Origin: Candidatus Adlerbacteria bacterium RIFOXYC1_FULL_48_26 | GTDB taxonomy: Bacteria > Patescibacteriota > Minisyncoccia > Phycocordibacterales > SBAW01 | Length of the DNA stretch: 64,000 nucleotides | Assembly (NCBI GenBank): GCA_001773575.1 | Contig: MEXB01000009.1 | Location: 7,441-71,440, forward strand | Direction of reading: 5' to 3' | Shown here: positions 16,396 to 61,575 of the stretch, one piece after another | Position numbering within the stretch: position 1 is the stretch's first letter | Layout: every line of letters begins with the position of its first letter | Translations under genes and position numbers: made by a program | Notes under the pieces: model-generated | Told to the model about the DNA's origin: nothing | Database searches by the model: none | Seen by the model: the letters and a program-made list of their open reading frames with translations, nothing else

Positions 16396-16569
16396 ATGAA
16401 GCACTTCAGTCAGTCCTTTCCGATGCAGAAGAAGCACCTCGGCGCCAACAGCCTCGCCACCGGCAGCTCCCACGGCCTCAGCGCGACCGGCGTGAAGCTC
16501 GATCCGACCATGGCGAACATGACCGACCAGGCCGCCGCCGCCGGCCGTCTCGACGTCGACAAGGGCTGA
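16396..16569 (+). CDS. GC3-rich mini-gene P1 (57 aa, Gly/Ala/Ser-rich, C-terminal Gly)
   Basis: Canonical SD GAAGGAGG 6 nt before ATG; nearly all third codon positions G/C; followed by two hairpins, the second a strong terminator; shorter than the 60-aa ORF-track cutoff. Confidence 0.5.
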   Translation: MKHFSQSFPMQKKHLGANSLATGSSHGLSATGVKLDPTMANMTDQAAAAGRLDVDKG

Positions 16570-16615
16570 ACTGCAGCCGTACCTCTTCAATCCTGGGCTT
16601 CCCCAGGGCCAACCC

Positions 16616-16649
16616 GGGCCTCACAGAAATGTGAGGCCCATTCTTTTTT
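16616..16649 (+). terminator. Rho-independent terminator after P1
   Basis: GGGCCTCAC-AGAAAT-GTGAGGCCC + TTCTTTTTT. Confidence 0.8.
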
Positions 16650-16779
16650 CTATAACGTTGCAAAATAGCCTTATATCCTATATATTCGAGCTAATAGAAA
16701 GCCCAGCTTTTTATTAGCGAGGGTGGAATTAACCTTTCGGATCGGCCCGGAAACCTCCATCTGACAATTACATAATTAT

Positions 16780-17874
16780 ATGAATGAAGTAGAAGAGGGT
16801 TCTATCCCTACGTCCGTAATGGCCATGTTCGCAGAACAGGCCCAAATGCCACCTAAGGAAGGTGACATTATTGAAGGTACAGTGTTGGCGCTCGACCGCG
16901 CAAAGCTCTATATCGACCTCCCACCGTTTGGTACTGGTGTTATCTTCGGCCGCGAATACATGAACGCGCGCGAAGTTATCAAGCGCATTAACGTTGGCGA
17001 CATCATCGCTGCAAAGGTTATCGCAACTGACAGCAAGGATGGCTACATCGAGCTTTCTCTTAAGGAAGCACGCCAGGCTATCATCTGGGCAGAAGCAGAA
17101 GATGCAGTTCGCAACAAAACTCAGTTCGACCTCGTTATTAAAGAAGCAAACAAGGGCGGTCTCATCTTGGAATGGCAAGGTATCGCAGGCTTCCTCCCTG
17201 CCTCACAGCTTAAGGCTGAGCACTATCCTCGCGTTGCAGATGGCAACAAGGATGAAATTTTGAACGAACTCCGCAAACTTGTTGGACAGAAGCTTCCTGT
17301 TTCCCTTATCTCTGCAATTCCAAAAGAAGGTAAATTGATCTTCTCTGAAAAGGGTGCTGACGATAAAGAGAAGAAAGAAATCGTAGAACGCTATGTCGTT
17401 GGCGATGTTATTGAAGGCGAAGTCACAGGTATGGTTGACTTCGGTGTCTTCGTGAAGCTTGAAGAAGGCTTGGAAGGCCTCGTACACATCTCTGAGATCG
17501 ACTGGGGCCTCGTAGACGACCCTCGCCACTTCTTTAAAGTGGGAGATAAGGTTGGCGTTAAGATAATCGACATCAAAGAAGGTAAAGTATCTCTCTCTGT
17601 GAAGCAGCTTAAGGCAAACCCATGGATGGAAGCTTCAGGTAAATACAACAAAGGAGACAAAGTTGAAGGCGTCGTTATCAAATTCAACAAACATGGTGCA
17701 CTCGCATCTATTGAAGAAGGTATCGCAGGCCTCGTGCACGTGTCTGAGTTCGGCACTGAAGACAAGCTCCGCAGCTCGCTTGAACTTGGTAAGCGTTACC
17801 CATTCACCATTTCCCTCTTCGATCCGAAGGAAATGCGCATGGCGCTCTCATTTGGCACAGGCGAAAAGAAATAG
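16780..17874 (+). CDS. rpsA: 30S ribosomal protein S1 (short 4-S1-domain form)
   Basis: 364 aa; repeated S1 domains (GDIIEGTV..., GDVIEGEVTGMVDFGVFVKL..., GDKVEGVVIKFNKHGA...). Confidence 0.85.
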   Translation: MNEVEEGSIPTSVMAMFAEQAQMPPKEGDIIEGTVLALDRAKLYIDLPPFGTGVIFGREYMNAREVIKRINVGDIIAAKVIATDSKDGYIELSLKEARQAIIWAEAEDAVRNKTQFDLVIKEANKGGLILEWQGIAGFLPASQLKAEHYPRVADGNKDEILNELRKLVGQKLPVSLISAIPKEGKLIFSEKGADDKEKKEIVERYVVGDVIEGEVTGMVDFGVFVKLEEGLEGLVHISEIDWGLVDDPRHFFKVGDKVGVKIIDIKEGKVSLSVKQLKANPWMEASGKYNKGDKVEGVVIKFNKHGALASIEEGIAGLVHVSEFGTEDKLRSSLELGKRYPFTISLFDPKEMRMALSFGTGEKK

Positions 17875-17895
17875 ATCAGTTCTACATAACAAAAA

Positions 17896-17922
17896 CCCCG
17901 CACAATGCGGGGTTTTTGTTTT
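17896..17922. terminator. Bidirectional Rho-independent terminator between rpsA and pth
   Basis: AAAAACCCCGC-ACAAT-GCGGGGTTTTTGTTTT; pth stop lies in the T-run. Confidence 0.7.
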
Positions 17923-18478
17923 ATTGTTTTGAATGGATTTCCATCGTTGCCTTGTCGCGACCTTCGGTTACCAAAAGCTCAAGAGCATCGCGAACAAGTT
18001 TTTTTGCCTTCTTTAATTTGTCTTGCTCTGTTGCTTTAAATTTTCCAAGCACAAAATCTACGACATCTTTCTCGCCTGTTGGTTTTTTAAGTTTGCCTGA
18101 TGGAGTTGCAGGCGAGATGCCGATGCGGATACGCACAAAGTCTTTTGTCTTAATTGCTTTGTGGATGGAATTAATGCCATTGTGTCCACCCGATGATGAA
18201 CCAAAGGATAGTTTTACTTTCCCAAGCGGAAGATCGAGCTCATCCTGCAGCACAACAAGCTGCTCTGCTTGTTTTTTGGATGTCACAAGCTTCTTAAACG
18301 CCGCGCCGGAGTTATTCATATATGTGTCAGGCAGAAGGATAGTAACTTTCTTACCAAATAGTTTGCCCTTCTCCCCTTCTTTCTTATCAATAGCCATCAA
18401 AAAATCACGTCCGATATTGTGGCGCGTGCCATCGTACTCTTTTCCTGGGTTTCCAAGACCTGCAATAATCCAACTCAT
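17921..18478 (-). CDS. pth: Peptidyl-tRNA hydrolase
   Basis: 185 aa; N-terminal IIAGLGNPGKEYDGTRHNIG signature. Confidence 0.9.
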   Translation of the reverse strand: MSWIIAGLGNPGKEYDGTRHNIGRDFLMAIDKKEGEKGKLFGKKVTILLPDTYMNNSGAAFKKLVTSKKQAEQLVVLQDELDLPLGKVKLSFGSSSGGHNGINSIHKAIKTKDFVRIRIGISPATPSGKLKKPTGEKDVVDFVLGKFKATEQDKLKKAKKLVRDALELLVTEGRDKATMEIHSKQ

Positions 18479-18534
18479 GTAGCGGAATTGTAGCAGAAAC
18501 TTGCATGTTCTAAAAAGAGGACTACAATGTCTCC

Positions 18535-19092
18535 ATGCAAGAGGAGAAACGTGAGAATTTTTTCACCGAACTCCTGAAATTTGGAATACTCGCGCTCGTT
18601 ATTGTCGTACCTATACGACTTTTTATTGCGCAACCCTTCATTGTGTCGGGAGTTTCAATGGTTCCTACCTTTGAAGACGCTCAATATCTCATCATTGATG
18701 AGTTTACGTACCATTTTGAGAAGCCTAGCCGTGGCGACGTCATCGTATTCCGCTACCCAAAAGATCCTACGCAGTTTTTTATCAAGCGCATCATCGGCCT
18801 ACCCGGTGACCAAGTTCATATTTCCTCCGCAGGCATTTCAGTAACAAAGGAGGACGGTACAGTACTAGACCTCGACGAGTCATATGTGGTTAACCAAGGC
18901 AACGGCAACGAACAAACCTATACTGTTCCAGAAAATAGCTACTTCGTACTAGGAGACAACCGACCTGAAAGTTCCGACAGTCGCGCATGGGGGTTTGTAC
19001 CCCGCGAAAATATCGTGGGCCGCGCATTTGTAAGACTGCTTCCCGTCCAAACTGCTGCTCTGTTCCCTGGGTTTGCCACAGAGCCGCAGTGA
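18535..19092 (+). CDS. lepB: Signal peptidase I
   Basis: 185 aa; TM anchor, VSGVSMVPTF (Ser box), GDVIVFRYP, RIIGLPGD, VLGDNRPESSDSR boxes. Confidence 0.85.
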   Translation: MQEEKRENFFTELLKFGILALVIVVPIRLFIAQPFIVSGVSMVPTFEDAQYLIIDEFTYHFEKPSRGDVIVFRYPKDPTQFFIKRIIGLPGDQVHISSAGISVTKEDGTVLDLDESYVVNQGNGNEQTYTVPENSYFVLGDNRPESSDSRAWGFVPRENIVGRAFVRLLPVQTAALFPGFATEPQ

Positions 19093-19121
19093 TTATTTAA
19101 ATAAAGAGAAACGACGAATAT

Positions 19122-20267
19122 ATGAGCGCACCGCAACGACTTTCCCCAGCCTCGTTCATTAAACACGCCGCAGATGTTTCAAACTTTTACGGATTCAAAC
19201 CGATGAAGGAGGTTGAGCGTGGCGTACCGCGCGCATTGCGTGTAAAAGGCCCGCACTCGTTCACCACAACAACAGCCCTATCCTCTTCGTACTTTGCACA
19301 AAAGCCTACACAACCAGTACTTAGTTTTTACGCATCTCACACACCTTCACACTTACCTGGTCTCTATGTACCAAAAGAAACCGGAGAGTTTGGTTTGCAG
19401 GTAGTTGGCGCAGACGACAGCCTCGGTGAAATAGTTGTACTCAAAACATTGTTCGCAATTTTAAATGAGTGGGGCGCAAATGTTGGGAAACTTCGCATCA
19501 ACACACTTGGGGACCGCGACTCAAAACTCCGCTTTGAACGCGAGCTCTCAGCGTTTGCACGTAAGCGCGCAAATGAGATGAGCGAATGCTGCCGTGCCGG
19601 GAGCGCTCAGAACGCATTGGCACTTTATAGATGCACTAACAATTCATGTCGCGACCTTGTACGTGAAGGTCCTCGCACGATGAACTTCCTTTCGGAAAAA
19701 AGCCGTGTTCACTTTAAAGATGTACTCGAGCATATCGAGCGCCTCGGATTCCCCTATGAACTTGACGACCTTCTTGTCGGAGACGACCGTGACCCACGCC
19801 TGGTATTTGAACTTGATCTGGAGACCCCTGACGCAACAGTGCTTTCCGTTGTTGGTGGCCGCCACGACGACTACGTACGCAAGGTGACAGGTAAAAAAGA
19901 AGGAAGCTTGGTATCAGCAAGTATATTCTTCCGCAATAACGGCATTGCTCGAGCCCACTTCGCCCCAACCCCAACAGCTAAAATACCGAAGGTCTACTTT
20001 GTACAGCTCGGACTCCGCGCAAAGCTTGAAGGTCTAGCCGTAGTAGACATGCTCCGCGATGCAGGAATGCCTGTATCCCAGTCATTTGATGCAAAAAGCC
20101 TGACACCACAACTTGAGTCCGCAAAGGCACAGGGCGTCTCCCACCTACTTATCATGGGTCAGCGTGAGGCCCTCGACCGCACCGTCATCGTCCGTTCTGC
20201 CACCAATTCCTCTCAGCAAATCGTCCAACTTGCGGCCCTACCCCGATTTTTGAAGGGAATTAAGTAG
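19122..20267 (+). CDS. Class II aaRS-like protein related to HisRS/HisZ with anticodon-binding domain but degenerate catalytic motifs
   Basis: 381 aa; HisRS-like ...RINTLGDRD..., motif-3-like VVGGRHDDY, C-terminal HGTP-anticodon-like domain; motif 1/2 (RPE, FRYERPQ-GR) not recognisable. Confidence 0.5.
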   Translation: MSAPQRLSPASFIKHAADVSNFYGFKPMKEVERGVPRALRVKGPHSFTTTTALSSSYFAQKPTQPVLSFYASHTPSHLPGLYVPKETGEFGLQVVGADDSLGEIVVLKTLFAILNEWGANVGKLRINTLGDRDSKLRFERELSAFARKRANEMSECCRAGSAQNALALYRCTNNSCRDLVREGPRTMNFLSEKSRVHFKDVLEHIERLGFPYELDDLLVGDDRDPRLVFELDLETPDATVLSVVGGRHDDYVRKVTGKKEGSLVSASIFFRNNGIARAHFAPTPTAKIPKVYFVQLGLRAKLEGLAVVDMLRDAGMPVSQSFDAKSLTPQLESAKAQGVSHLLIMGQREALDRTVIVRSATNSSQQIVQLAALPRFLKGIK

Positions 20268-20311
20268 CAACTTGCGTAAAAGTGCCTTGCTGTGGTATTG
20301 TTTCTCGGCAT

Positions 20312-20563
20312 ATGGCAACAAACGCAGAGGTACAAAAGAATGATAACGAGACGCCGATAAACCTTATCCGACGCTTTTCTAAGCGCGTACAGGGTGCCGG
20401 TGTTATTTCTGAGCTCCGTGGCCGTCGTTACCACTCACGCGTTAAATCACGTGAAGTACGCCGCGCACAGACCCTCAAGGTCATCAAGCGCCGCGAAAAC
20501 GTCAAAGAACTCATCAAGCTTGGCAAAATGCCTGAGCGCCCTGTCCGTGGACGCCGCCGCTAA
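20312..20563 (+). CDS. rpsU: 30S ribosomal protein S21
   Basis: Start at MATNAEV; basic protein ...RRFSKRVQGAGV...RRYHSRVKSREVRRAQTLK S21-like. Confidence 0.7.
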   Translation: MATNAEVQKNDNETPINLIRRFSKRVQGAGVISELRGRRYHSRVKSREVRRAQTLKVIKRRENVKELIKLGKMPERPVRGRRR

Positions 20564-20566
20564 ACG

Positions 20567-20906
20567 TTTGCGAATCTCCTATAAAAAAATAAAAGACGAA
20601 GTGTTAGGCAAGGAATACGACTTATCCCTTGCCTTTTTGTCTGCCTCAGAAATGCGCGACGTAACGATCCGCACAAAAAACAAAGACAAGGTTTCTAATG
20701 TTCTCTCCTTCCCACTCTCAAAAACTTCCGGCGAGATACTTATTTGCAGAAAGGCAGCGGCGCCCTTCAGCGTCGGCTATTTGTTTATCCACGGCCTCTT
20801 TCATTTAAAAGGCTTCAAACATGGTGTTAGAATGGAAACTCAAGAGCGCAGAATTTTGAAACAATTCAAGCTCAGAATGCATGAGCAAAATAGTCACAGG
20901 AATTGA
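20567..20906 (+). CDS. ybeY: Endoribonuclease YbeY (rRNA maturation factor); start codon uncertain (likely TTG/GTG near rpsU stop)
   Basis: Frame contains ...LSFPLSK... and the HGLFHLKGFKH zinc-binding H-x3-H-x5-H motif; no in-frame ATG after the rpsU stop. Confidence 0.55.
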
Positions 20907-22059
20907 TGTTGGCACGTACCATGTAAAAGTGGTTATTGCAGAGAGCGCGGATGACCCACGCCAGCCTCCACGTATTCTAGGTACGGGATATGCAGAAAGC
21001 CGTGGCGTGAAAAATGGCTATATCATCTCTCAGGCAGAAACTACTCGTTCCATTGCAGCCGCCGTTGCGCAAGCCTCTAAGGCCGCTCATACAAAAGTTA
21101 AGCGCGCATACGTTAGCATTAGCGGTATTGGCGTAGACGAAGCATTTTCACGCGGAGAAACGGTTGTTGAACGTGGCGACTCCGAGATTACTGAACGCGA
21201 CATTCCTCGCGCTATTGCAGCAAGTGAAAAATCTCTGGCACCTGCTGCGATTGTAAATAGAAAAATAATTCACACCATCCCTCTTCGCTTCTCTGTTGAT
21301 GGCGTCAAAGTGATGGGCCGCTCTCCTGTTGGAATGAAGGGCATGCGTATTGCCGTTGAGTCTCTTTTTATCACCTGCCTCGACAGACATGTCAGCGACC
21401 TAGTCTCCGCCGTAGAAGAGGCTGGGGTTGAAGTGGAGGACGTTGTAGCTGGACCTCTTGCCGCAAGCTTCGTCGCTCTTACCAAAATGCAGAAGCGTGT
21501 TGGGTGCATACTTGCAAACATCGGCGCTGAGACGTTTTCAATAATAGTATTTGAAGACAACACACCGATATCTATAAAAGTGTTCCCCGTTGGAGCAGCA
21601 AACATCACCAACGAGCTCGCGCTTGGTCTCCGCATTGCTCCAGAGGATGCAGAGCAACTCAAACAAGGCGCAGTACTCGGTGCTCCATTTCCAAAAAAGA
21701 AAATAGATGACATCATCGCAAAAAAAGTTTTAGAGATGCTTAAACTCGCTGAAGCACATTTGAAAAAAATAGGTAAAGACGAATTGCTTCCTGCAGGAAT
21801 TGTTCTAACAGGCGGAGGTTCGCTTATTCAAGGCGTTGCAGACCTGGCAAAAACAGCACTACGCCTCCCTGCCCGCACCGCATCTCTTGCAGAAGGCGCG
21901 GCAACTAAAATGCAACTTAAGGATGGTTCTTGGGCTGTAGCCTATGGCCTCACCCTTTGGGGCCTCACATCAGGCGGAGATTTAGAAGTACGCGACGATA
22001 GCACGTTCGGAGATATTGTCCGCAGCCTCTGGCGTTGGTTCAAAAAGTTCCTTCCTTAG
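20881..22059 (+). CDS. ftsA: Cell division protein FtsA
   Basis: 392 aa; actin-like ATPase pattern GIDVGTYHVKVV..., LTGGGSLIQGV; precedes ftsZ. Confidence 0.85.
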   Translation: MSKIVTGIDVGTYHVKVVIAESADDPRQPPRILGTGYAESRGVKNGYIISQAETTRSIAAAVAQASKAAHTKVKRAYVSISGIGVDEAFSRGETVVERGDSEITERDIPRAIAASEKSLAPAAIVNRKIIHTIPLRFSVDGVKVMGRSPVGMKGMRIAVESLFITCLDRHVSDLVSAVEEAGVEVEDVVAGPLAASFVALTKMQKRVGCILANIGAETFSIIVFEDNTPISIKVFPVGAANITNELALGLRIAPEDAEQLKQGAVLGAPFPKKKIDDIIAKKVLEMLKLAEAHLKKIGKDELLPAGIVLTGGGSLIQGVADLAKTALRLPARTASLAEGAATKMQLKDGSWAVAYGLTLWGLTSGGDLEVRDDSTFGDIVRSLWRWFKKFLP

Positions 22060-22134
22060 ACTCAAAACAAAAGAGTGTTTTGTCAAAGTTTGCATCCATA
22101 CCAGAAGTGGTATACTTCGCGCACGCATTATTTA

Positions 22135-23352
22135 ATGAAAAAGCAACACCCTATGGCACAAGTACAACCAGACATTGAAGCGTTCGCACGGATCCGAGTC
22201 GTCGGTGTAGGGGGTTCGGGCAAAAACGCTGTCAATCACATGGTTGAAAGCAAAGTCCGCGGGGTAGATTTCATCTCCATCAATACCGATGCACAAGATT
22301 TGCATCACTCTCTCGCAAAAAAGAAAATTCACATTGGTAAAAACCTTACACGCGGTCTTGGTGCCGGAATGAATCCAGAAATCGGCAAGCGCGCAGCAGA
22401 AGAGACAAAAGAAGAAGTTCAACAGTCGCTTAAAGGTTCTGACATGGTGTTTATCGCAGGAGGAATGGGTGGCGGCACTGGTACAGGCGTCGCTCCAGTC
22501 GTTGCAAAAACTGCAAAAGAACTCGGCGCACTTACTGTCGCTGTTGTTACAAAACCGTTTGCATTCGAAGGCCAGCAGCGCATGCGTTTGGCAGAACAAG
22601 GCTTGGAAGAACTTCGCCGCGAAGTTGACGCCCTTATCGTTATTCCAAACGACCGCATCCTCGCAACTGTTGCAAAGGACACCACTCTCAAAGCAGCGTT
22701 TGCTGCGTGCGACGATGTGCTTAAACAAGCTGTAGAAGGAATTTCTGACCTCATCACCCACCCAGGTATCATCAACGTCGACTTCGCCGACGTACGAGCA
22801 GTTATGGAAAACTCAGGCTCAGCTCTTATGGGTATCGGCATTGCGTCAGGTGAAAACCGCGCTGCAGTTGCTGCAAAGGCTGCTGTTTCATCTCCCCTTC
22901 TTGAAATCTCAATCAACGGCGCAAAGGGCGTGCTCTTTGCAATCGCAGGTCAGGACGACCTCGGTATGATCGAAGTACACGAAGCAGCAAAGATCATTAC
23001 TGAATCTGTAGATCCAAATGCAAAGATTATCTTCGGCGCAATCAAAGACGAAAAACTTAAGAAAGGCGAAGTTCGCGTAACTGTTATCGCAACAGGCTTC
23101 CCAGCAGCAGGTATCGCACCACGCGGCACACCACTCTTTACATTCAGCGGCCGCGAAACAAAAGAAGTTGATGTTCCACCAATTGGCAAAATCTTCAACA
23201 CTCCAGCTCCTGCTCCAAAAGAAGTAGAAAAAGAGGAACCTAAGAAACCTGTTGTTGAGGCTCCAGTAGAGCCCAAACTTAAGAAAGAAGATGACGAAGA
23301 GGATGAATGGGGTGCTGTACCTTCCTTCCTACGCCGTCCTAAGATAAAATAA
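22135..23352 (+). CDS. ftsZ: Cell division protein FtsZ
   Basis: Tubulin signature GGGTGTG (GGMGGGTGTGVAPVVA), N-terminal IRVVGVGGSGKNAV; start may be 22135 or 22153. Confidence 0.9.
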   Translation: MKKQHPMAQVQPDIEAFARIRVVGVGGSGKNAVNHMVESKVRGVDFISINTDAQDLHHSLAKKKIHIGKNLTRGLGAGMNPEIGKRAAEETKEEVQQSLKGSDMVFIAGGMGGGTGTGVAPVVAKTAKELGALTVAVVTKPFAFEGQQRMRLAEQGLEELRREVDALIVIPNDRILATVAKDTTLKAAFAACDDVLKQAVEGISDLITHPGIINVDFADVRAVMENSGSALMGIGIASGENRAAVAAKAAVSSPLLEISINGAKGVLFAIAGQDDLGMIEVHEAAKIITESVDPNAKIIFGAIKDEKLKKGEVRVTVIATGFPAAGIAPRGTPLFTFSGRETKEVDVPPIGKIFNTPAPAPKEVEKEEPKKPVVEAPVEPKLKKEDDEEDEWGAVPSFLRRPKIK

Positions 23353-23356
23353 GTCG

Positions 23357-24407: not shown

Positions 24408-24422
24408 CAAGGACAGAATTAA

Positions 24423-42148: not shown

Positions 42149-42733
42149 ATGAATGGAACGAATGCACGCGGCAGACTCGCGCTGGTTGACGGAGTATCAC
42201 TCGAAAGATCCCTCTCGACACATGGGATCAATAAAATAGACGCGGATATGCTCCGTAGATTACTGAAGAGTAAAATACCTGGAGCATACGAATTCTTGCA
42301 GAATCCCGTCATTACCATGCACCCTGAGTTGGCCGACGGAGAACTTGGGAGCGCCTTTGTGCGAAAAGGGTTTGAAGTTCTTGGGAGACACAGTCGCGAC
42401 GAGGCCGACGATTACGCGTTGCGCGAACGTATCGAGAACGCAGACCCGGCCAAGATTGGCCAAATCGTTATGGTCAGCTCCGACGCCGGCTACGCTCGAG
42501 CGCTTTTCGAGAAGTGGAAGCAGGGCGTATCTATCTGCTGGTTCGTCGCGGATAGCTGCGACGAGAAAGATGGCGATACACGAATAGGCCGATTGTTGCG
42601 AAAATTTTTCGCTTGCGGAGCATTTACCTGGGTCAGGATGGAGCCTTTTATTGCGTCTTTGCAATATCCTTCCTCGGCCCTAGAAGGCAAGCGCCATCGG
42701 CAAGGGACTCGCCCACACGCACACAGTATGTAA
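42149..42733 (+). CDS. NYN-domain (LabA/DUF88-like, PIN-related) protein
   Basis: 194 aa; LALVDGVSL start of NYN core and IVMVSSDAGYARAL; lone plus-strand gene among minus-strand genes, GC visibly higher. Confidence 0.5.
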   Translation: MNGTNARGRLALVDGVSLERSLSTHGINKIDADMLRRLLKSKIPGAYEFLQNPVITMHPELADGELGSAFVRKGFEVLGRHSRDEADDYALRERIENADPAKIGQIVMVSSDAGYARALFEKWKQGVSICWFVADSCDEKDGDTRIGRLLRKFFACGAFTWVRMEPFIASLQYPSSALEGKRHRQGTRPHAHSM

Positions 42734-43690: not shown

Positions 43691-43786
43691 GTGCTGGAAA
43701 AATATAACACAAATCGTTGATCCCGACTGAAACGTCGGGAAAGAAAATGGCGACCTAAAGAAGGCCGCCATAAAAAAACAGATGAA

Positions 43787-43933
43787 CTAGTTGTCGTTGC
43801 AGGGAATGACGACCTTGGTCTCCGGATCTCTCCAACGTGCAAGACGCTTGTCTCGGATCTCTTTGACCTCCACCGCAATGCGTGGAGAGAGGGCTCTCCG
43901 CGCCCGGATCAGAAATTCTTCTTGCGCTGTCAC
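43787..43933 (-). CDS. Possible small protein (48 aa, GTG start) MTAQEEFLIRARRALSPRIAVEVKEIRDKRLARWRDPETKVVIPCNDN
   Basis: Canonical SD AAGGAGG 8 nt upstream of GTG; not low-complexity unlike overlapping R-rich frames. Confidence 0.3.
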   Translation of the reverse strand: MTAQEEFLIRARRALSPRIAVEVKEIRDKRLARWRDPETKVVIPCNDN

Positions 43934-44050
43934 TACTCACACCTCCTTTTGATTGTCCTCTTTTATATACGCCTCAGGCGCATACAAAGTTTCAGTAGAA
44001 AAGTTTGAGGCGGCTCTCTTTCGAGAAACCGCCTCGGTGAACGTGCGCTG

Positions 44051-44296
44051 CTAGTAAAAGCAGCGTCCGCGCTTGCCCTTGCAGACCGGCGCCCTTTCGA
44101 AGGAGCCGTGCGACGGCGTTTCGGGATAGTCCCGGAACACCGTGGTGTGCGCACTGGCCGCCGGCGCGATCGCGGGCTTGGACGCCTGCATCGACATCTG
44201 CGCCACTTCGACAATCTTGAGGTTGCCGTACATGGCCCGATGAACAGCACGGTCGGCGAGCGTCGGGTCAACAGTATTCAGAACCAAAGTGCCCAT
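44051..44296 (-). CDS. GC3-rich mini-gene P2 (81 aa)
   Basis: SD GGGGAG 7 nt before ATG; perfect consensus promoter upstream; hairpin GAGGCGG...CCGCCTC + T-rich tail after stop; GC-rich codons. Confidence 0.5.
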   Translation of the reverse strand: MGTLVLNTVDPTLADRAVHRAMYGNLKIVEVAQMSMQASKPAIAPAASAHTTVFRDYPETPSHGSFERAPVCKGKRGRCFY

Positions 44297-44347
44297 TGAG
44301 ATTCTCCCCTAGTCAAAGTCCTTCATGCACTGTGCATGATTAGATAT

Positions 44348-44376
44348 ATTATATATCAGGAAACTGTTCCTGTCAA
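44348..44376 (-). promoter_or_regulatory. Perfect consensus sigma70 promoter TTGACA-17-TATAAT (minus strand) with 8-bp inverted repeat ACTGTTCC/GGAACAGT flanking the -35
   Basis: Read on minus strand: cTTGACAggaacagtttcctgataTATAATat; inverted repeat ACTGTTCC-TGTCAA-GGAACAGT spans the -35 hexamer. Confidence 0.7.
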
Positions 44377-53534: not shown

Positions 53535-53726
53535 TTAAAAGCCAGAGATACCGCCAACTCCTTGAGATGCCAAGAAGGCTGGAAGAACGAGAGGTATTAT
53601 TACCAAAGGAAGGAGAATGAAAGACAGAGTTATGATAGCGCTCCACAAGAAGTATTTACGCATTTTTTCTGCTGATTTATAGGTCGCGTCGAGCTTCTGT
53701 TCAATTCGGTTCAGCTGTTCATCCAT
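53535..53726 (-). CDS. Small membrane protein (63 aa)
   Basis: Start MDEQLNRIEQKLD; C-terminal TM helix; ORF-track N-terminal extension overlaps ZIP gene. Confidence 0.4.
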   Translation of the reverse strand: MDEQLNRIEQKLDATYKSAEKMRKYFLWSAIITLSFILLPLVIIPLVLPAFLASQGVGGISGF

Positions 53727-53745
53727 AGGCTTATTATACTGCACC

Positions 53746-54468: not shown

Positions 54469-54487
54469 AGAAGAAAATACTTACATA

Positions 54488-54901: not shown

Positions 54902-54958
54902 ATGTGGAGTATGTATTACATGCAAAATAATTGCAAATAAATATATGCGCCGCCGTTG

Positions 54959-55297
54959 TTAGTCTTTATGCTTCGTGCGGTGCATGTCGGTAAGCACACC
55001 GTTTGCCTCCATCAGAACAGCTATAGCATTTCGCAAGAAAAGAACTCCTGCGCCAACTGTTAGCCATCCAGTAGCGAAAGACATAACCGGAGAAGTAAAC
55101 ACGGTAACAGGGTTATACATACAAACGGCAAAAAAAGTAAACCAGAGCGATGCGCAGAACCCGCAGTACAAGGCTCCTCCAACAATAGGAAGCGATTCAA
55201 TCTTTTTTGCAAAGTCCTTATGGTCAAGCAAGATAGCTCGCCATATAAGCGTAAACGTAGCAACGGACGCGGTCAGTACTAAATATTCAGCAATCAT
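54959..55297 (-). CDS. Hypothetical 4-TM membrane protein
   Basis: Start MIAEYLVL right after upstream terminator; ORF-track Arg/Pro-rich 74-aa extension is read-through into GC-rich islet and rejected. Confidence 0.5.
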   Translation of the reverse strand: MIAEYLVLTASVATFTLIWRAILLDHKDFAKKIESLPIVGGALYCGFCASLWFTFFAVCMYNPVTVFTSPVMSFATGWLTVGAGVLFLRNAIAVLMEANGVLTDMHRTKHKD

Positions 55298-55312
55298 ATA
55301 TTTATAGTAATA

Positions 55313-55356
55313 GTTTAATAAAAGTGCCCCGCCAAACATAAAGTCCGGCGAGGCAC
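55313..55356 (-). terminator. Rho-independent terminator after mini-gene P4
   Basis: Minus strand GTGCCTCGCC-loop-GGCGGGGCAC (10-bp stem, one mismatch) + TTTTATT. Confidence 0.7.
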
Positions 55357-55377
55357 GACGCACGATGAGGTGACGCC

Positions 55378-55641
55378 TTACAGGTGGGCGGCCAGCGGGT
55401 TGCCGCTGTCGCGCAGGAACCCCATCCCGAACTTCGAGACCGGGTGGACATTCCCGCCACGCGTCTGGCAGAGAGCGCCGTCCTGGACGACGAGGTCGCC
55501 CGCGTCCGGCCGGACGCAACCGTAGTCCTTGGCCGAGACCACGACCACAGCATCGGATTTGACGCTACCCTGCTGCTCCGGCGTGAAGACACAGGACGTG
55601 CAGCAGGGCGGACAGCCGCCACACGGGGGCTTCTTGGACAT
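55378..55641 (-). CDS. GC3-rich mini-gene P4 (87 aa) with Cys-rich N-terminus MSKKPPCGGCPPCCTSC
   Basis: SD AGGAG (inside palindrome CCTTCGAAGG) 8 nt before ATG; strong terminator after stop; GC-rich islet flanked by AT-rich DNA. Confidence 0.5.
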   Translation of the reverse strand: MSKKPPCGGCPPCCTSCVFTPEQQGSVKSDAVVVVSAKDYGCVRPDAGDLVVQDGALCQTRGGNVHPVSKFGMGFLRDSGNPLAAHL

Positions 55642-55759
55642 CGAATCAACTCCTTCGAAGGTACTTCAAACGCAACCAATTTGCGTTTGTATATGCAAGA
55701 ATATCACAGCATATAACCAATTGCAAGTTATTTGCAATTACATATATCGACTAAACACA

Positions 55760-56905
55760 CTAGTGTCGATGTCCGTGAGAACCCGTGTGTGTTATAGATG
55801 ACACCTTCGACAACATCCACACTGCCACAAATGTTGTGATAGGTACGGCAAGAATAAGGCCGATGCTGCCTACAAGAATACGGACAATTTCTGTGGCAAA
55901 TAATTCGCTATTAAGTACAGAACTCAGGCTCGCACTTCCAGAATATGTTTGTGTCAGAAGTAAGAGCAACGGCAAGGCGACGCCGACGTATGCAATTGCC
56001 AACGTGTTTACTAAAGCGCCTATGTGTTCCCTACCGATGCGGATTGCTCGCTTATAGATATCAACACGGCTCATGTGTGTGCCTGCCAAAAATAATTCTT
56101 CTACAGCTATTGCCTGGCTAATAGCAATGTCGTACAGCACTCCAAGCAGACCTATCATAATGCCGCCAAAGAGAAGGCCTAGCATGTCGATACCGCCCTG
56201 CGTATTAAAGTTGAGATAAATACTCTCTTCGCTGCCATATCCGCTGAAATGCCCCATATGGACGACAGTGTATGCGAGAGCGCCGGTGATACTAACCGTA
56301 ATAAGCATGCCGATAACAGCCGCACTCGTGGTCTTGGTAAACCCGTGTGTGACATATGATCCCGCAATAATAATGAGCGACGCGACCCCGATACTCACAA
56401 GAATTGGGGAGTATCCGCTTAATATTCCTGGCAACAGTATGTAGAAAATTAAAATCAAACTACCAGCCAGACTCAAAAGCCCTCTGATACCCTGCACACC
56501 TCCGAACACAAAAAGCAGCATGAGAAAAAGAATTCCAAGCCATATAAGCAAGTCGAGACGGTACGCGTCTGACACAGTCCAATGGTCGGTTGCATCAAGT
56601 GGGTTACTGATATGCCGAACGTAGAAAATATCGCCCTCTTTTAATTGGGTGAAATTATTTTCAAACGTCGGTGTCTGTCCTTTATCCGGCCCTTCAAGTA
56701 CTTCTATTTTCAATGTCTGCACAGTGGCTGGGGTATCTGTCCCTGGAATAACTGTGTCGTGTTGATTAGTCATTTCCAAAACCCTAGCCTTCCCCACACT
56801 TATCGTGTCAGGCACTAATTCCTGGGCATGCGTAACGAAAGGAACTGCACCCAACAAGAGTGCAGTTCCTAGACCTATGTAGAGTATGCGCTTCATTCGA
56901 AGCAT
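55760..56905 (-). CDS. YibE/F-family polytopic membrane protein
   Basis: 381 aa; signal peptide, extracellular N-domain, then ~8 TM with YibE/F-like pattern; C-terminal His-rich tail. Confidence 0.7.
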   Translation of the reverse strand: MLRMKRILYIGLGTALLLGAVPFVTHAQELVPDTISVGKARVLEMTNQHDTVIPGTDTPATVQTLKIEVLEGPDKGQTPTFENNFTQLKEGDIFYVRHISNPLDATDHWTVSDAYRLDLLIWLGILFLMLLFVFGGVQGIRGLLSLAGSLILIFYILLPGILSGYSPILVSIGVASLIIIAGSYVTHGFTKTTSAAVIGMLITVSITGALAYTVVHMGHFSGYGSEESIYLNFNTQGGIDMLGLLFGGIMIGLLGVLYDIAISQAIAVEELFLAGTHMSRVDIYKRAIRIGREHIGALVNTLAIAYVGVALPLLLLLTQTYSGSASLSSVLNSELFATEIVRILVGSIGLILAVPITTFVAVWMLSKVSSITHTGSHGHRH

Positions 56906-56915
56906 GAGAGAGAAA

Positions 56916-57743
56916 TTATTGAACTGAAGTTGTGCTACTTGCAGTTGCGTTAGCGCCGACTGGGCCTATTTTCGCCAAGCCTTTCACTATTACATTGATG
57001 TCTGCGCGTGCAGCTTTAAGATCTGCCTCAACTGTTTTCAAGTTTGCACGAGCCGCCTTAAGCGCCGCAGTGTTTGCTGCCATCTGCGCACTGTCTCCGG
57101 TGTCAGGAGTAAGAGAAGCAGTAGAGGAAACGCTTGCCTGTGCCTGTGTGTTTGCATTGCTGATCTTTGTGGCAAGGTCATTAAGCGCTGTCTGAAGCGC
57201 AGTTACATCTGCACCTGCGTCTGCAGCAGCCTGAATGCGCGCAGCAAGTTTGTTACCAAGGGTCTGCATCATTGTTGAGATAGAAACTGCACGGTCTGCA
57301 GCTGCGGCGATGTGGATTTGTGGCACCACGAGCGCGTACACACGGTACGACTGAGTGATTGACTGCACATCGGCCTTCAATGTTGCCTCATCTGTATCTG
57401 CTTGGATCTTTGCATCAAGAGCCTGGAATGCGCTTGTCTGTGTCTGGATCGCATTTGCCAAACTCTGCTTAAACGATGGAGTTACCTGCTGCATTGCCTG
57501 AACGCGTGCGTTTATAGAAGCGAGTGCGTCAACGCGGCGCTGAAGTTCTTGGTGTGCGCGATCTTTTTTCTTGTCCATTGCCGCAGTTGCAGCTGCGCTT
57601 GCTTTTACACTTGTGCTTGCAGCAGTAGTGCGGACTTCTGCTGAAACTCCAACATTAGCTGCACCAGTCTGAGCAGAAGCTACTACTGGAGCGAGAACAA
57701 CCAAACCGAGAGACGCTGCGAGGATATAAGGTAGTCTATTCAT
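56916..57743 (-). CDS. Secreted Ala/Gln-rich coiled-coil protein
   Basis: 275 aa; Sec signal peptide (…VVASA|QT); highly helical A/Q/T-rich. Confidence 0.5.
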   Translation of the reverse strand: MNRLPYILAASLGLVVLAPVVASAQTGAANVGVSAEVRTTAASTSVKASAAATAAMDKKKDRAHQELQRRVDALASINARVQAMQQVTPSFKQSLANAIQTQTSAFQALDAKIQADTDEATLKADVQSITQSYRVYALVVPQIHIAAAADRAVSISTMMQTLGNKLAARIQAAADAGADVTALQTALNDLATKISNANTQAQASVSSTASLTPDTGDSAQMAANTAALKAARANLKTVEADLKAARADINVIVKGLAKIGPVGANATASSTTSVQ

Positions 57744-57744
57744 A

Positions 57745-58035
57745 TTACTGGCTTATCTGCTTATCATTCATGCTTGAATCAACCCCTGCTGTATCGGTTG
57801 TGTATGCGCTGAGCTGTGCATCGATAGCTGCAGTGTCTTGTGAGATGGCTTCATCAGACGCATCGTTTGATGCGCTCATACCATTGATAGGCCCTGTCTC
57901 CTGCGTTGAGGTAGCGTTTTGATTTCCAAGCATAGGGTTAGCTTGTTTATTTGTAAGCCAACCGCTCCACCACAAAAGCCACGCGAGGGCTGCAATAACG
58001 ATTACTGCAAGGACCCATTTAATTGCCATAGACAT
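57745..58035 (-). CDS. Small membrane-anchored protein
   Basis: 96 aa; N-terminal TM (WVLAVIVIAALAWLLWW), acidic Ser/Thr-rich tail. Confidence 0.4.
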   Translation of the reverse strand: MSMAIKWVLAVIVIAALAWLLWWSGWLTNKQANPMLGNQNATSTQETGPINGMSASNDASDEAISQDTAAIDAQLSAYTTDTAGVDSSMNDKQISQ

Positions 58036-58088
58036 ACTATTTCTTCTTTGTTTTTAGACGTAATTTCGAATAATACCGCCCAAGTATA

Positions 58089-58472
58089 CTACAATTTCTT
58101 TGGATCTAGCTCGAGACACACAGAATTGACGCAGTAACGATTGCCCGTACCTGTTGGGCCATCAGGAAATATATGGCCTAAATGCGAGCCGCATTGAGCG
58201 CATGTGATTTCTTCACGATGCATCCCGTAAGAATCATCTACGGTTGTTTTAGTAGAGCCGGGAATTGCCTGGTCGAATGAAGGCCACCCTGTTCCAGAGT
58301 CGAACTTTGCATCTGAAGAAAATAGCGCATTTCCGCAGACTTTACAGCGATACATGCCGTCACGTTTTTCATGTAGAAGCTCACCTGAGAACGGCGCCTC
58401 CGTCCCCTTCTCTCTTAGAACGCGGTATTGCTCTGGAGTGAGCTTTTTCTTGAGCTCTTCTTCGTCCATCAT
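58089..58472 (-). CDS. msrB: Peptide-methionine (R)-S-oxide reductase MsrB
   Basis: 127 aa; two CxxC zinc pairs (CKVCGNALF, CAQCGSHLGHIF) and catalytic Cys (RYCVNSVCL). Confidence 0.85.
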   Translation of the reverse strand: MMDEEELKKKLTPEQYRVLREKGTEAPFSGELLHEKRDGMYRCKVCGNALFSSDAKFDSGTGWPSFDQAIPGSTKTTVDDSYGMHREEITCAQCGSHLGHIFPDGPTGTGNRYCVNSVCLELDPKKL

Positions 58473-59224
58473 CGTTGCTTGAAGTATATCATTTGGGTTT
58501 CTCCCCCAAGCCAGGTAGTAGTACTGCTTCCAGACACAGGAAATTGCTCACCAAGATATTTAGGCTTGCGCCCTGAGGCAATATCGAACGCAGCTTTTAA
58601 AGATGCAGGAATTTCTCGCAAGGAGTTATAGAAATATCTCTCCCCTTCCTGAGAAGCATCCACGCCGTATGCGTCCACACCAAGTGTGCGAGCAATAAAT
58701 ATCGCTCTAGGTAAGTGATATTGCTGCGTCACTATAAGCATATGAGAAACTCCGAACACATCTCGCGCACGGTACATACTGCTGTATGTATCAAAGCCAG
58801 CGTAGTCGAGGAAGATGTCGGCTTGAGGCACTCCAAGTGCGAGCAAATATTTACCCACTGGATACACCTCGTCATACTGGAGCGTACTGTTGTCGCCAGT
58901 TACTAAAATTTTTGAAACGACGCCAGACTGGTAGAGAGTTGCTGCGCGGTCGGCGCGCTCTTTCATCACCGCAGACAACGTGCCGTTGGACATGACAGAA
59001 GCACCGAGCACAAGTGCCACTGGAGCCTTAGGAGGAGCCTCCTGGCGGCCATATATAAAGCGAACAGTGGAAATATCCACATACGCAACAACAAGTACGC
59101 ACGTAAAGACAAACAGGAAGGGCGCGAACAGCACCCATCGAAAAATCCCTTTTATCACAATGATTATTATAAAGCCTGCGTAAAACTTTTCGATCGGTTC
59201 TGGGGAACCGCGAGAAAGTTTCAC
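58469..59224 (-). CDS. SanA/YdcF (DUF218) family membrane-anchored protein
   Basis: 251 aa; N-terminal TM; DUF218 core ...KILVTGDNSTLQYDEV... Confidence 0.65.
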   Translation of the reverse strand: MKLSRGSPEPIEKFYAGFIIIIVIKGIFRWVLFAPFLFVFTCVLVVAYVDISTVRFIYGRQEAPPKAPVALVLGASVMSNGTLSAVMKERADRAATLYQSGVVSKILVTGDNSTLQYDEVYPVGKYLLALGVPQADIFLDYAGFDTYSSMYRARDVFGVSHMLIVTQQYHLPRAIFIARTLGVDAYGVDASQEGERYFYNSLREIPASLKAAFDIASGRKPKYLGEQFPVSGSSTTTWLGGETQMIYFKQR

Positions 59225-59235
59225 TTCGGCATCCT

Positions 59236-59913
59236 CTACATTAATTCTTCGTCTAGGGGAACCACTTCTGTCATTTGCATCTGCGGCGCTGGGATAATAC
59301 AGAGCACTTTCCCTGCGATTTTAAAATCTTCTTTCAAGATAATTGGTTTGAATTTAGGATCTTTTGATTCTGGCCAGAGAATGACCATACCGTCGCGTTT
59401 CTCCAGACGTTTAACCGTAACCATGTCGTTTACTATCGCCGCGACGCGGTCGCCATTTTGCACATCATCAGTAAAACGGATAAGAACATAGTCGCCAGTG
59501 TTAATACCTGCGTCGTTCATACTGTCGCCGATAGCGCGCACGGCAACAATGTCTCCATCCTCTTCATCAACGATACGTTTGTCTACTTCTAGAAATTCAT
59601 CTGCTCCTTGAGTGTTCTGCGCAAAGACACTGAGGTCGTCGCACCCAACATTGGCAATGACGGGGATGCTTACTGTCCCCCACGCACCATCAACATTGCG
59701 TAGCTCTATATTGCGAGAAGCATTTTTGCGGCGAACGATGTAGCCCTTTCTCTCTAAGATGTCTAAATATTGAGTAACGGTGCGAAGCGAGTTAAAACCG
59801 AGCGCTGAACGTAGCTGTTCCAGCGTTGGAGACTGGTTTTGCGTGTACATGTAGTCCCTGAGAGTGCTAAGTACGCGCTGCTGCTTAAATGTTAGGAGGT
59901 TTTGTATTTGCAT
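59236..59913 (-). CDS. lexA: LexA repressor (S24 peptidase with N-terminal wHTH)
   Basis: 225 aa; Ala-Gly cleavage region VIANVGCDD..., catalytic Ser GDSMNDAGINTGD and Lys VKRL. Confidence 0.85.
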   Translation of the reverse strand: MQIQNLLTFKQQRVLSTLRDYMYTQNQSPTLEQLRSALGFNSLRTVTQYLDILERKGYIVRRKNASRNIELRNVDGAWGTVSIPVIANVGCDDLSVFAQNTQGADEFLEVDKRIVDEEDGDIVAVRAIGDSMNDAGINTGDYVLIRFTDDVQNGDRVAAIVNDMVTVKRLEKRDGMVILWPESKDPKFKPIILKEDFKIAGKVLCIIPAPQMQMTEVVPLDEELM

Positions 59914-59980
59914 ACACCAATACTAACACTAATTACTGCGTGCAATACACAAGATACACTAATGTGTGGATATCTTCGCG

Positions 59981-60310
59981 CTAGCTTTCGTGATGATGAG
60001 CGTGTTTGTGATGCTGTGGGCCCTTGGTAAAAAGCTGGTCGAAGCGCAACTTTGCGAAACCAAACAAGTACACGATCTCCAAAATACCTAGGGTGTTAAT
60101 GAGGAGTATGGCGAGAAACCACCATGGCTGGCCATTGCGTGAGGCGTGCCATAGAGCCAAACCCTTCCATACCATTGACCAAAGCACCGCAATAAAGACC
60201 AGCCCACCAACTGCACCTACAGCGAGCGGAGCGTTAATAAACCAAGCCTGATTCATGCCCCAATCATGCGTATACATATATCGTAAGTATACAACGCTCT
60301 TATCCGTCAA
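59981..60310 (-). CDS. DUF5652-family small membrane protein
   Basis: ...VWKGLALWHASRNGQPWWF... characteristic; real start may be MNQAWF (60256). Confidence 0.5.
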   Translation of the reverse strand: MTDKSVVYLRYMYTHDWGMNQAWFINAPLAVGAVGGLVFIAVLWSMVWKGLALWHASRNGQPWWFLAILLINTLGILEIVYLFGFAKLRFDQLFTKGPQHHKHAHHHES

Positions 60311-60318
60311 CTATATAT

Positions 60319-61308
60319 ATGACACCATTTAAAAAAGGCCTCGTTTCTCTAGCAATTATCGGTAGCGTATTGGCTCCCGCATCTGGCGCGTTTGCCCAAA
60401 CGTATTCGACTATTTCAGCTCAGGTTGTTAATACCAACTGTCCAGTACTGAACTACGACCTCTACTACGGAATGGTCAATAGCGATGTCGTGGCGCTGCA
60501 ATCCTTCTTAGCTGTGCAAGGATACTTCCATTCAACCCCTATCGGTGTCTTTGGCCCACTGACATACCGCGCGGCACAGAACTTCCAAGCAGCTCACGGC
60601 ATTCCAGCAACTGGCTATGTTGGCCCACTTACACGTGCAGTGATCAACTCAATGCAGAACTGCAATAACCCTATGCCTCCAGTTCCGCCACCAACACCTG
60701 CGCCATTTATCCAGAACATTTCTCCATCATCTGGAACTGTGGGAACGAGTGTGACGCTTTCCGGCTACGGCTTCAGCAATAACAGCACTGTTGTGTTTGG
60801 TGGTAGCGGAATCTCAAACGTATATTCAAATGGCTCAAGTCTAACGTTTACTATTCCTGAATACACATCTGTATGTCCCCCAGGTGCATACTGCATTATG
60901 ATGGCGCGCCAGGTGACGCCAGGAACATACTCGATCTACGTTCAAAATCAAAACGGTACAAGTAACACAGTGAACTTTACTGTGACAAGCCAGGCAACGA
61001 CACAACCTCTTTCAATCACAGGTCTTGATGCGCCGGCAAGCGTACGTATTGGACAAGCAGCTACATGGACATTACGCACTAATGTAGAAAATTATGTTCC
61101 AGGTTCAACTCTTCGCTACTCAGTAACGTGGGGCGATGAAGGAGTCTATCCTACCTATGCATCGAACGCTTCTTCTCCAAACATACAAACAACTGCAAGC
61201 TTTACGCACACATATTTGATGGCTGGCACATATCGCCCAACCTTCACTGTCACAAACGACGCTGGGCAAACTGCCTCAGCAACTGCGACTGTGATTGTAG
61301 GGTATTAA
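60319..61308 (+). CDS. Secreted protein with peptidoglycan-binding (PG_binding_1-like) domain and Ig-like/PKD-like beta domains
   Basis: Signal peptide; DVVALQSFLAVQGYF...GPLTYRAAQNFQAAHGIPATGYVGPLT; Ser/Thr-rich beta modules. Confidence 0.6.
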   Translation: MTPFKKGLVSLAIIGSVLAPASGAFAQTYSTISAQVVNTNCPVLNYDLYYGMVNSDVVALQSFLAVQGYFHSTPIGVFGPLTYRAAQNFQAAHGIPATGYVGPLTRAVINSMQNCNNPMPPVPPPTPAPFIQNISPSSGTVGTSVTLSGYGFSNNSTVVFGGSGISNVYSNGSSLTFTIPEYTSVCPPGAYCIMMARQVTPGTYSIYVQNQNGTSNTVNFTVTSQATTQPLSITGLDAPASVRIGQAATWTLRTNVENYVPGSTLRYSVTWGDEGVYPTYASNASSPNIQTTASFTHTYLMAGTYRPTFTVTNDAGQTASATATVIVGY

Positions 61309-61349
61309 AAAGAAAAGACCCCTCACCGCACCGAAGTGCTAAGTGAGGG
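61306..61349. terminator. Rho-independent terminator (mainly for minus-strand mini-gene P3 / E1-E2 transcript)
   Basis: Plus AAAAAGAAAAGA-CCCCTCAC-loop-GTGAGGGG; the T-run lies on the minus-strand side. Confidence 0.7.
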
Positions 61350-61395
61350 GCTAGTTTAGGGAACCCACTCGTACGCGTACGCTACTGAAGCCGCG

Positions 61396-61575
61396 CTAGC
61401 CGAGCGTGGGATGGAAGCTGAGTTCGTTGCTCGGGTCGGTGCCACGCTCCTGCGCGCCACCGCTGCTGCTCGCCGAATGTGCGCCGGTGCCGCCGAGATG
61501 AGCCTGGACCTCAGCCGTCGTCATCACCGTCGCACCTTCACCCAAACGGGCCGTGAGGGCCGATTGCATATTCAT
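61396..61575 (-). CDS. GC3-rich mini-gene P3 (59 aa, Gly/Ser/Ala-rich, ends ...HPTLG)
   Basis: SD GGAGG 6 nt before ATG (MNMQ...); 80 nt downstream of E1-like gene with no terminator between; strong terminator after stop. Confidence 0.5.
   Translation of the reverse strand: MNMQSALTARLGEGATVMTTAEVQAHLGGTGAHSASSSGGAQERGTDPSNELSFHPTLG

Follow-up and report, generated by a model that had tools for sequence, protein, structure and literature searches.

Whether short genes of strongly deviating base composition are traces of foreign DNA, members of one mobile family or resident genes subjected to some local force is the question raised by a 64,000-nucleotide stretch (hereafter the window) of contig MEXB01000009.1 from Candidatus Adlerbacteria bacterium RIFOXYC1_FULL_48_26. 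An earlier inspection of its letters, the sequence-only reading, described four GC-rich islets with mini-genes P1–P4, proposed for them a common (V/L)DP(T/S)xA(D/N) core and considered either a mobile family of paralogs or imports from a high-GC donor, supposing conditionally that the organism might be a Saccharibacteria-like episymbiont. The organism belongs to Adlerbacteria (Parcubacteria) and not to Saccharibacteria, being of the Candidate Phyla Radiation (CPR) type, and a search of the literature on CPR or Adlerbacteria revealed no account of GC-rich mini-genes. Here, we addressed if the mini-genes are real, if they are related to each other and what may account for their composition. The deviation in composition is real and more pronounced than had been described, comprising six units instead of four; the mini-genes are real small-protein genes, unrelated to each other and each forming its own transcription unit, while the cause of their GC richness is only partly explained.

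Composition, coding character and relatedness of the mini-genes

Scanned with windows of 150 nt, the 64 kb have a GC content of 48.0% (mean 0.48, standard deviation 0.052), and only five stretches, with GC content of 0.69–0.72, exceed the cut-off set at median plus 3.5 standard deviations (Table 1). All four islets described before were thus recovered, and their open reading frames (ORFs) P1–P4 are present with the translations claimed for them; the list itself was incomplete, since the fifth islet, carrying P0 directly upstream of P1, and a weaker sixth unit, P5, had been missed. The dominance of G/C-ending codons, said to be unlike other genes, stood as well: GC content at third codon positions (GC3) amounts to 0.75–0.91 in P1–P4 versus 0.46 ± 0.06 (maximum 0.61) in 36 window ORFs of at least 200 aa, and the islets are compositionally atypical. 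In the frames of P1–P4, GC3 exceeds GC1 and GC1 exceeds GC2, the periodicity being weak for P0 (Table 1). Such periodicity is expected of protein constraint combined with GC pressure and speaks against purely non-coding RNAs, as do the searches with Rfam 15 covariance models, which gave only tRNAs at gathering score and, for the islets at E <= 1, sub-threshold matches around terminators. Pfam and NCBIfam searches of P0–P4 matched no family; exact copies of P1, P2 and P4 are present in Rifle groundwater assemblies.

Each ORF had also been credited with its own Shine–Dalgarno (SD) sequence and intrinsic terminator. SD sequences and hairpins are present indeed, but SDs and the terminators of P2 and P3 were recognized only by eye, outside the scan rules. 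Consensus scans returned terminators for P0, P1 and P4 and promoters for P0 and P2 only; the terminators of P2 and P3 are long-loop hairpins followed by a T-run, read from sequence and fold, and a promoter search combining consensus scan and sequence reading identified none for P3 or P4.

The proposed kinship of P1–P4 was not borne out. Smith–Waterman scores of peptide pairs were compared with 1000 shuffles in 10 tests, and nine of the ten pairs stay at the shuffle level, p varying from 0.25 to 0.93 for the pairs among P1–P4 except P1–P2. The latter pair, with local score 34 and p = 0.014 uncorrected, is the single point in favor of a family and fails correction for 10 tests, while the HLG...TG..S..S.G segment ascribed to P1 and P3 gives p = 0.29. 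The core motif is retained in own orthologues only for P3 (TDPSNEL): VDPTLAD of P2 aligns with SDTDTLFN in its orthologue P0009, LDPTMAN of P1 is absent from the counterpart in L098 (L-numbers designate fetched loci), and P4 has RPD instead of DP. No DNA similarity between islets was detected, neither direct repeats nor mobility genes flank them, and scans of viral contigs with P2, P3 and the alignment of P4 yielded no match. Scans of viral and metagenome contigs with the peptide pattern of P1 confirmed no relative, the metagenome scan being uninformative as it missed even the source organism. Thus, at the level testable here (shuffle controls, motifs of orthologues, islet DNA) the paralogous family is refuted, and the resemblance over the shared core is due to chance.

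Syntenic slots and a recombination tract at P3

A word-indexed search of 5.8 billion clusters revealed orthologues of P3 with 98% and 88% identity, and the gene order YggT-like / E2-like (~200 aa) / ThiF / P3 / convergent PKD gene is found in L093–L097. Segment-wise identities were compared between the window genome (W), L093 and L094; for the pairs W–L093, W–L094 and L093–L094, respectively, they amount to 95.3, 89.2 and 90.1% at the 3′ end of ThiF, 98.7, 72.7 and 74.0% in the leader and 97.2, 91.1 and 90.0% in the P3 ORF, turning to 75.4, 75.2 and 93.3% in the PKD gene and 70.5, 71.3 and 93.6% in DUF5652. At the P3 terminator the tree changes its topology. One breakpoint lies there and the other one inside ThiF (61309–61867 in comparison with L093 and L094), and the terminator hairpins of W, L093 and L094 are unrelated after almost identical P3 ORFs. 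Within ThiF, the proportion of synonymous differences (pS) decreases toward P3, from 0.76 to 0.31, and synonymous divergence (dS) is 0.10–0.21 for P3 as compared to 1.0–3.0 for neighboring genes. Synonymous constraint was rejected as the cause of this 10-fold lower dS because the topology switch indicates recombination. Since W and L093 share 95–99% identity within the tract versus 70–75% in the flanks and the topology switches at its border, W carries an L093-like tract of roughly 0.5–0.7 kb obtained by homologous recombination across about 25% divergence. Phylogenetic incongruence and tract-like similarity set against the flanks were found at P3, the unit for which close relatives are available.

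The other mini-genes reside in syntenic slots as well: P2 in L180, P0/P1 in L098 and P4 in five genomes. An exhaustive HMMER search of 1.84 billion representative proteins revealed exactly one homologue of P2, P0009, with 59% identity, and in L180 it occupies the same position after SecG / GroES / GroEL. Between the two lineages the proportion of nonsynonymous differences (pN) is 0.30 for P2 versus 0.044 for GroEL, and GC3 is 0.79 both in the window and in L180, the genome of which has 54% GC. Within 80 groEL-anchored Parcubacteria loci (1.3 Mb) no homologue of P0–P3 was found, and these species representatives, with GroEL identity of at most 79%, have no P2-like islet after groEL.

In L098 the leader and terminator at the P0/P1 slots are recognizable, including a conserved block from the promoter-like hexamers of P1 to its SD, while the ORFs differ: the P0 slot holds a different 66-aa ORF with GC3 of 0.90, and the P1 slot a 53-aa His-rich ORF with GC3 of 0.83, the similarity of which to P1 is at best marginal (p = 0.04). 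In L099 a Q-rich 57-aa ORF is found in the P0 slot. The DNA of the P0 and P1 ORFs is about 50% identical to that of L098 as compared to 83% for the adjacent MBL gene, the protein of which is 92% identical.

P4 has four homologues with 43–65% identity, all sharing CGGCPPCCxxC, YGCVRPD, HPV and NPLAAH(C); 19 residues are invariant in five sequences. Its GC3 is 0.48 and 0.56 in L009 and L010, belonging to genomes with 47–50% GC, and 0.71–0.78 in L011 and L012 from genomes with 59–60% GC. The ordinary values in the former two imply that GC richness is not intrinsic to P4.

Possible origins of the GC richness

The account that we prefer, though only tentatively, is that of resident mini-gene slots with fast turnover or exchange of ORFs, GC richness of which would come from recombination with GC-richer relatives and/or from biased gene conversion. 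Each mini-gene would occupy a fixed slot also present in sister Adlerbacteria/Parcubacteria genomes, and the ORF in the slot would be either swapped between species by homologous recombination, as is the case for P3, or diverge or be replaced far faster than its flanks, as P0, P1 and P2 suggest. From this we infer a causal link from recombination to composition: the GC-rich, codon-atypical character would be a by-product, arising while alleles circulate in a clade of genomes with ~46–60% GC, and/or often-recombined segments of a few hundred bases would be subject to GC-biased gene conversion. GC-richer relatives carrying the same loci do exist (L011, L012 and L180, see above). Patches of 40 codons with GC3 of 0.78–0.82 were also observed inside otherwise ordinary long genes, far above binomial expectation (Table 1). 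Such patches (maximum 0.80–0.82) are expected of mosaic tracts and may be of the same origin as the islets. In bacteria, recombination has been reported to be associated with GC3, the effect being a modest genome-wide shift (PMC4450053). In accordance with it, high GC3 coincides here with the recombined segment (P3 and the 3′ end of ThiF); the difference is that GC3 goes up by 0.3–0.45 over 200–350 bp and that recombination was observed at one unit.

Translational selection was rejected, since the codons preferred by the mini-genes (GCC/GCG, CCG, ACG, GTC, AGC, AAG) are opposite to those of GroEL, GroES and S1 (GCA, CCA/CCT, ACT, GTT, TCT). GC richness of small genes in general was rejected too, as KGG, SecG and the 63-, 89- and 96-aa genes have GC3 of 0.38–0.58.

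A number of observations weigh against recombination as the source. It was demonstrated at only one of six units, for none of which a GC-rich donor allele closer than 62% was found. No GC3 gradient was seen in the genes next to P0/P1, P2 and P4, and the GC-rich stretch spans approximately from leader start to terminator, which suggests a property of the transcript rather than random recombination tracts. Despite heavy divergence, GC3 of 0.79–0.91 persists in both lineages compared for P0/P1 (W and L098) and for P2 (W and L180), which calls for import happening repeatedly or for a permanent local force favoring GC. Finally, the donor clade of P3 (L093, L094) itself has 46–47% GC, so that the exchange at P3 alone does not explain the GC richness.

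The main rival to the recombination-driven account, possible though less likely, is selection on the transcript: short monocistronic mRNAs would need GC richness, possibly for stability against AU-preferring RNases or toxin endonucleases, for strong folding or for slow decoding with rare codons, recombination being incidental. It would fit the coverage of leader, ORF and 3′ untranslated region by the GC-rich stretch, which ends at promoter and terminator and is sharply delimited from the flanking genes at P0/P1, P2 and P4. Folding better than that of dinucleotide shuffles is seen for the transcripts of P4 (z = -5.2) and P2 (z = -3.7), but not for those of P1 (z = -1.6) and P3 (z = -1.1). Adenine is almost absent from third codon positions of P1–P4 (0.02–0.07), and high GC3 is kept in both lineages though the ORF DNA is only 50–66% identical; the P4 orthologues of L009 and L010 nevertheless have ordinary GC3, and so do the other small genes listed above. 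Low dS of P3, which might look like constraint on the transcript, is accounted for by recombination.

A bolder picture, which we regard as improbable, may also be drawn: Adlerbacteria would keep fixed "expression slots", each composed of a conserved leader with SD followed by a terminator (promoters are recognized for some), the short ORFs of which would undergo continual exchange or rewriting and be kept at ~65–70% GC by a local recombination- or transcript-linked force, and P3 would serve as a disordered substrate or tag with C-terminal Gly for a minimal E2/E1 pair lacking a beta-grasp ubiquitin-like protein.

Very unlikely is the assumption that the islets were imported recently and independently of each other from high-GC organisms outside CPR, an actinobacterial host for instance, and still await amelioration. 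Codon usage of the mini-genes is foreign to the host genome and similar to that of a genome with roughly 65% GC, P0, P1 and P2 are near-orphans, and exchange between species did take place at P3; to this extent the proposal of imports held. Glu, however, is still mostly encoded by GAA, and every homologue with the locus fetched lies in a CPR-type gene neighborhood: no homologue in a non-CPR neighborhood was found for P2 in the exhaustive search or for P3 and P4 in the word-indexed one. No actinobacterial donor appeared in these searches, which were taxonomy-free and covered proteins P2, P3 and P4, with P0 and P1 not searched and no tblastn made against actinobacteria. The slots are syntenic in relatives whose neighboring genes are synonymously saturated, and the operator-like palindromes of P4 described below are conserved across five Parcubacteria genomes. 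Thus CPR-type neighborhoods of homologues, syntenic slots and conserved regulatory DNA make a recent non-CPR import unlikely. From the features of donated genes only atypical composition was observed, while homologues in a donor lineage, absence from the slots of relatives, and repeats or mobility genes were not. Compositionally atypical genes are reportedly regarded as "alien" in the concept of Lawrence and Ochman, with amelioration following horizontal transfer. The mini-genes resemble them in GC3 and codon usage far outside the host range, as well as in being short, poorly conserved and near-orphan. They differ in that the units are single genes of 28–90 aa rather than multi-gene islands, reside in slots syntenic across species and possess conserved native regulatory sequences, and that neither donor nor mobility gene or target-site repeat was found.

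One dispersed mobile family built around the core motif is hardly credible, given the tests described above and the genomic contexts and conservation regimes, which differ wholly from gene to gene. Scarcely more can be said for GC-rich structured non-coding RNAs with accidental ORFs, to which the rarity of stop codons in GC-rich sequence, the weak periodicity of P0 and the strong folding of P2 and P4 would be congenial, set against the strong three-base periodicity of the ORFs in P1–P4 and L098, protein-level conservation of P4 and P3 and the lack of an Rfam family at gathering score.

Neighborhoods and putative functions of individual mini-genes

Functions of the mini-genes, which we infer from their neighborhoods and sequences, appear to differ gene by gene. 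The supposed link of the mini-genes to an E1/E2 module concerns P3 only, which is found behind the E2-like/ThiF pair in three species or more; the others have unrelated neighbors. P3 has its own SD and leader and starts 79 nt past the ThiF stop. Its sequence is of low complexity, and its C-terminus (...HPTLG) bears a single Gly. The ThiF protein scores 49 bits with Pfam (cut-off 28.1), remaining below every NCBIfam equivalog cut-off, which makes the assignment family-level only. The E2-like designation comes solely from the conserved motif YHHPH-x4-G-x2-C, reminiscent of HPN...C of E2 enzymes; Pfam, NCBIfam, PADLOC and PDB sequence/profile searches with this protein were empty, and its single-sequence structure model, with predicted local distance difference test (pLDDT) score of 41, is unusable. 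It is 57% identical between species whose ThiF is 88% identical. The operon contains no gene for a beta-grasp ubiquitin-like protein or JAB peptidase, and no ligase or deamidase is encoded nearby.

Pup and ubiquitin-like proteins are known as modifiers, and MccB-type ThiF enzymes adenylate the C-terminus of a peptide. By analogy with them, P3, which is short, probably disordered, ends with an invariant Gly-terminated tail and is encoded after ThiF and the E2-like protein, may be a peptide substrate of this pair. Unlike these modifiers, it has neither the Gly-Gly nor the Pup GGQ/E end and probably no beta-grasp fold; the accompanying ligase, deamidase or JAB peptidase are missing from its vicinity.

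P4 is accompanied in every locus by a Fur-family regulator, a ~115-aa membrane protein, YibE_F and ZIP or ZnuABC transporters. Two palindromes of 21 bp precede it. They alone match the form AANNGCAA-N5-TTGCNNTT perfectly in the 64 kb; by chance, 0.37 matches would be expected with one mismatch allowed. The same palindrome stands upstream of the P4 homologues (L011 424–444 and 469–489; L012 415–435; L009 and L010 with one mismatch); the 1.8 Mb of fetched loci contain a single unrelated match. The Fur-family regulator next to P4 probably has its operator in these palindromes: both neighborhood with regulator and metal transporters and an operator-like element upstream, as anticipated for members of a Fur/Zur regulon, were found in five genomes. 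P4, judging by this context, is apparently a metal-related small protein under Fur-family control. Small Cys-rich proteins of Zur/Fur regulons include metallothionein-like metal buffers or chaperones. P4 is similar to them in having five Cys in CGGCPPCCxxC plus the YGC motif and in its position beside the Fur-family regulator, ZIP/ZnuABC and YibE_F, behind two conserved palindromes; it differs in having no match in Pfam, NCBIfam or PDB. The structure model of P4 (pLDDT 67.7) gave no fold match in PDB, including that for the predicted C-terminal beta-rich domain.

P2 may be described as a groESL-adjacent small protein. The palindrome in its leader, close behind the perfect sigma-70 consensus promoter, could be either an operator or a hairpin and does not correspond to the CIRCE element. 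Another ORF, of 48 aa, is located between the P2 terminator and tRNA-Ser (43787–43933, minus strand), starting with GTG, preceded by a strong SD, AAAGGAGG, and having GC3 of 0.63; a terminator follows at 43771–43747, and the gene is called in one public assembly.

P0 and P1, judging from residue composition, are hydrophilic and probably disordered peptides. The P1-slot allele of L098 (12–173, minus strand) is strikingly rich in His, which makes about a fifth of its 53 residues and hints at metal binding. P5 stands alone as the weaker case; Pfam did not recognize it, and the fetched loci contain no relative. In other Parcubacteria representatives isolated genes with GC3 of 0.79–0.84 were noticed in genomes with 43–51% GC (L059 3253–3603, ~105 aa; L064 13427–14080; L014 4274–5137), and GC-rich isolated genes may thus reach beyond the genome of RIFOXYC1_FULL_48_26.

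Table 1. Features of the GC-rich mini-gene units and of their surroundings in the window
Feature	Coordinates	Strand	Description and basis
Stretches above the GC cut-off	16103–16291, 16396–16631, 44022–44219, 55324–55644, 61343–61587		150-nt scan
GC3-rich patch in long gene	4561–6156		codons 196–235
P5 promoter-like site	11367–11394	+
P5 mini-gene	11423–11695	+	90 aa; GC3 0.74; with SD; sixth, stand-alone unit
P5 terminators	11698–11716, 11728–11747	+
P0 promoter-like site	16058–16086	+	TTGACG-17-TATAGT; consensus scan, 10/12 matches
Fifth GC islet	16074–16306		contains P0
P0 mini-ORF	16121–16207	+	28 aa, MSSTPPARPQQQERERTNDRERQQREHG; Q/E/R-rich; GC1/GC2/GC3 0.68/0.58/0.72
P0 intrinsic terminator	16256–16296	+	scan; partly conserved in L098
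P1 promoter-like hexamers	16323–16350	+	TTGCAT-16-TAGAGT; read from sequence, under scan threshold
P1 mini-ORF	16396–16569	+	57 aa; GC1/GC2/GC3 0.59/0.48/0.91; gene call in public assemblies of the same organism
P1 intrinsic terminator	16616–16649	+	scan
GC3-rich patch in LepA	34218–36086		codons 29–68
GC3-rich patch in long gene	42149–42733
P2 terminator hairpin	44007–44035	-	GAGGCGG...CCGCCTC; sequence and fold; identical in L180; loop too long for scan
P2 mini-ORF	44051–44296	-	81 aa; GC1/GC2/GC3 0.59/0.50/0.79; downstream of groES-groEL
P2 5′ leader palindrome	44324–44338	-	CATGCAC-A-GTGCATG; sequence; CATGC-N5-GCATG retained in L180
P2 promoter	44348–44376	-	perfect TTGACA-17-TATAAT; scan; same hexamers in L180
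GC3-rich patch in RNase J	48529–50421		codons 428–467
P4 intrinsic terminator	55324–55356	-	scan
P4 mini-ORF	55378–55641	-	87 aa; GC1/GC2/GC3 0.65/0.51/0.86; Cys-rich (CGGCPPCCxxC ... YGCVRPD ... HPV ... NPLAAH); YibE_F / P4 / membrane protein / Fur / ZIP locus
Operator-like palindrome 1 upstream of P4	55668–55688		AAACGCAA-N5-TTGCGTTT; motif scan
Operator-like palindrome 2 upstream of P4	55719–55739		AATTGCAA-N5-TTGCAATT; motif scan
P3 terminator hairpin	61309–61351	-	sequence and fold; recombination breakpoint
P3 mini-ORF	61396–61575	-	59 aa; GC1/GC2/GC3 0.63/0.58/0.75; C-terminal 21 aa, Gly-ended, invariant in three species
Tract exchanged between species, minimum extent	61396–61867	-	ThiF 3′ end, leader and P3; W–L093 identity
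P3 5′ leader hairpin	61598–61616	-	GGCCATC...GATGGTC; fold; pairing kept in L094 via U-A to U-G change
ThiF-family (E1-like) gene	61655–62353	-	directly upstream of P3; Pfam
E2-like candidate	62354–62974	-	206 aa; YHHPH-x4-G-x2-C; motif only, recognized by no profile library

If the GC richness is driven by recombination, a bacterium would here display biased gene conversion or introgression of unusual sharpness and on the scale of a gene, with units of 200–350 bp, which would give a handle on DNA exchange by ultra-small CPR bacteria across species with ~75% identity. If selection at the mRNA level is responsible, it would point to a level of post-transcriptional regulation so far unrecognized in organisms whose regulatory repertoire is minimal. 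For annotation, it follows that strongly GC-rich mini-ORFs in a genome of moderate GC content can be real genes and that short motifs common to such mini-ORFs can be chance. The most concrete leads are the association of P3 with an E2-like/ThiF pair, for which no ubiquitin-like partner is recognizable, and the P4 family under apparent control of a Fur-family regulator.

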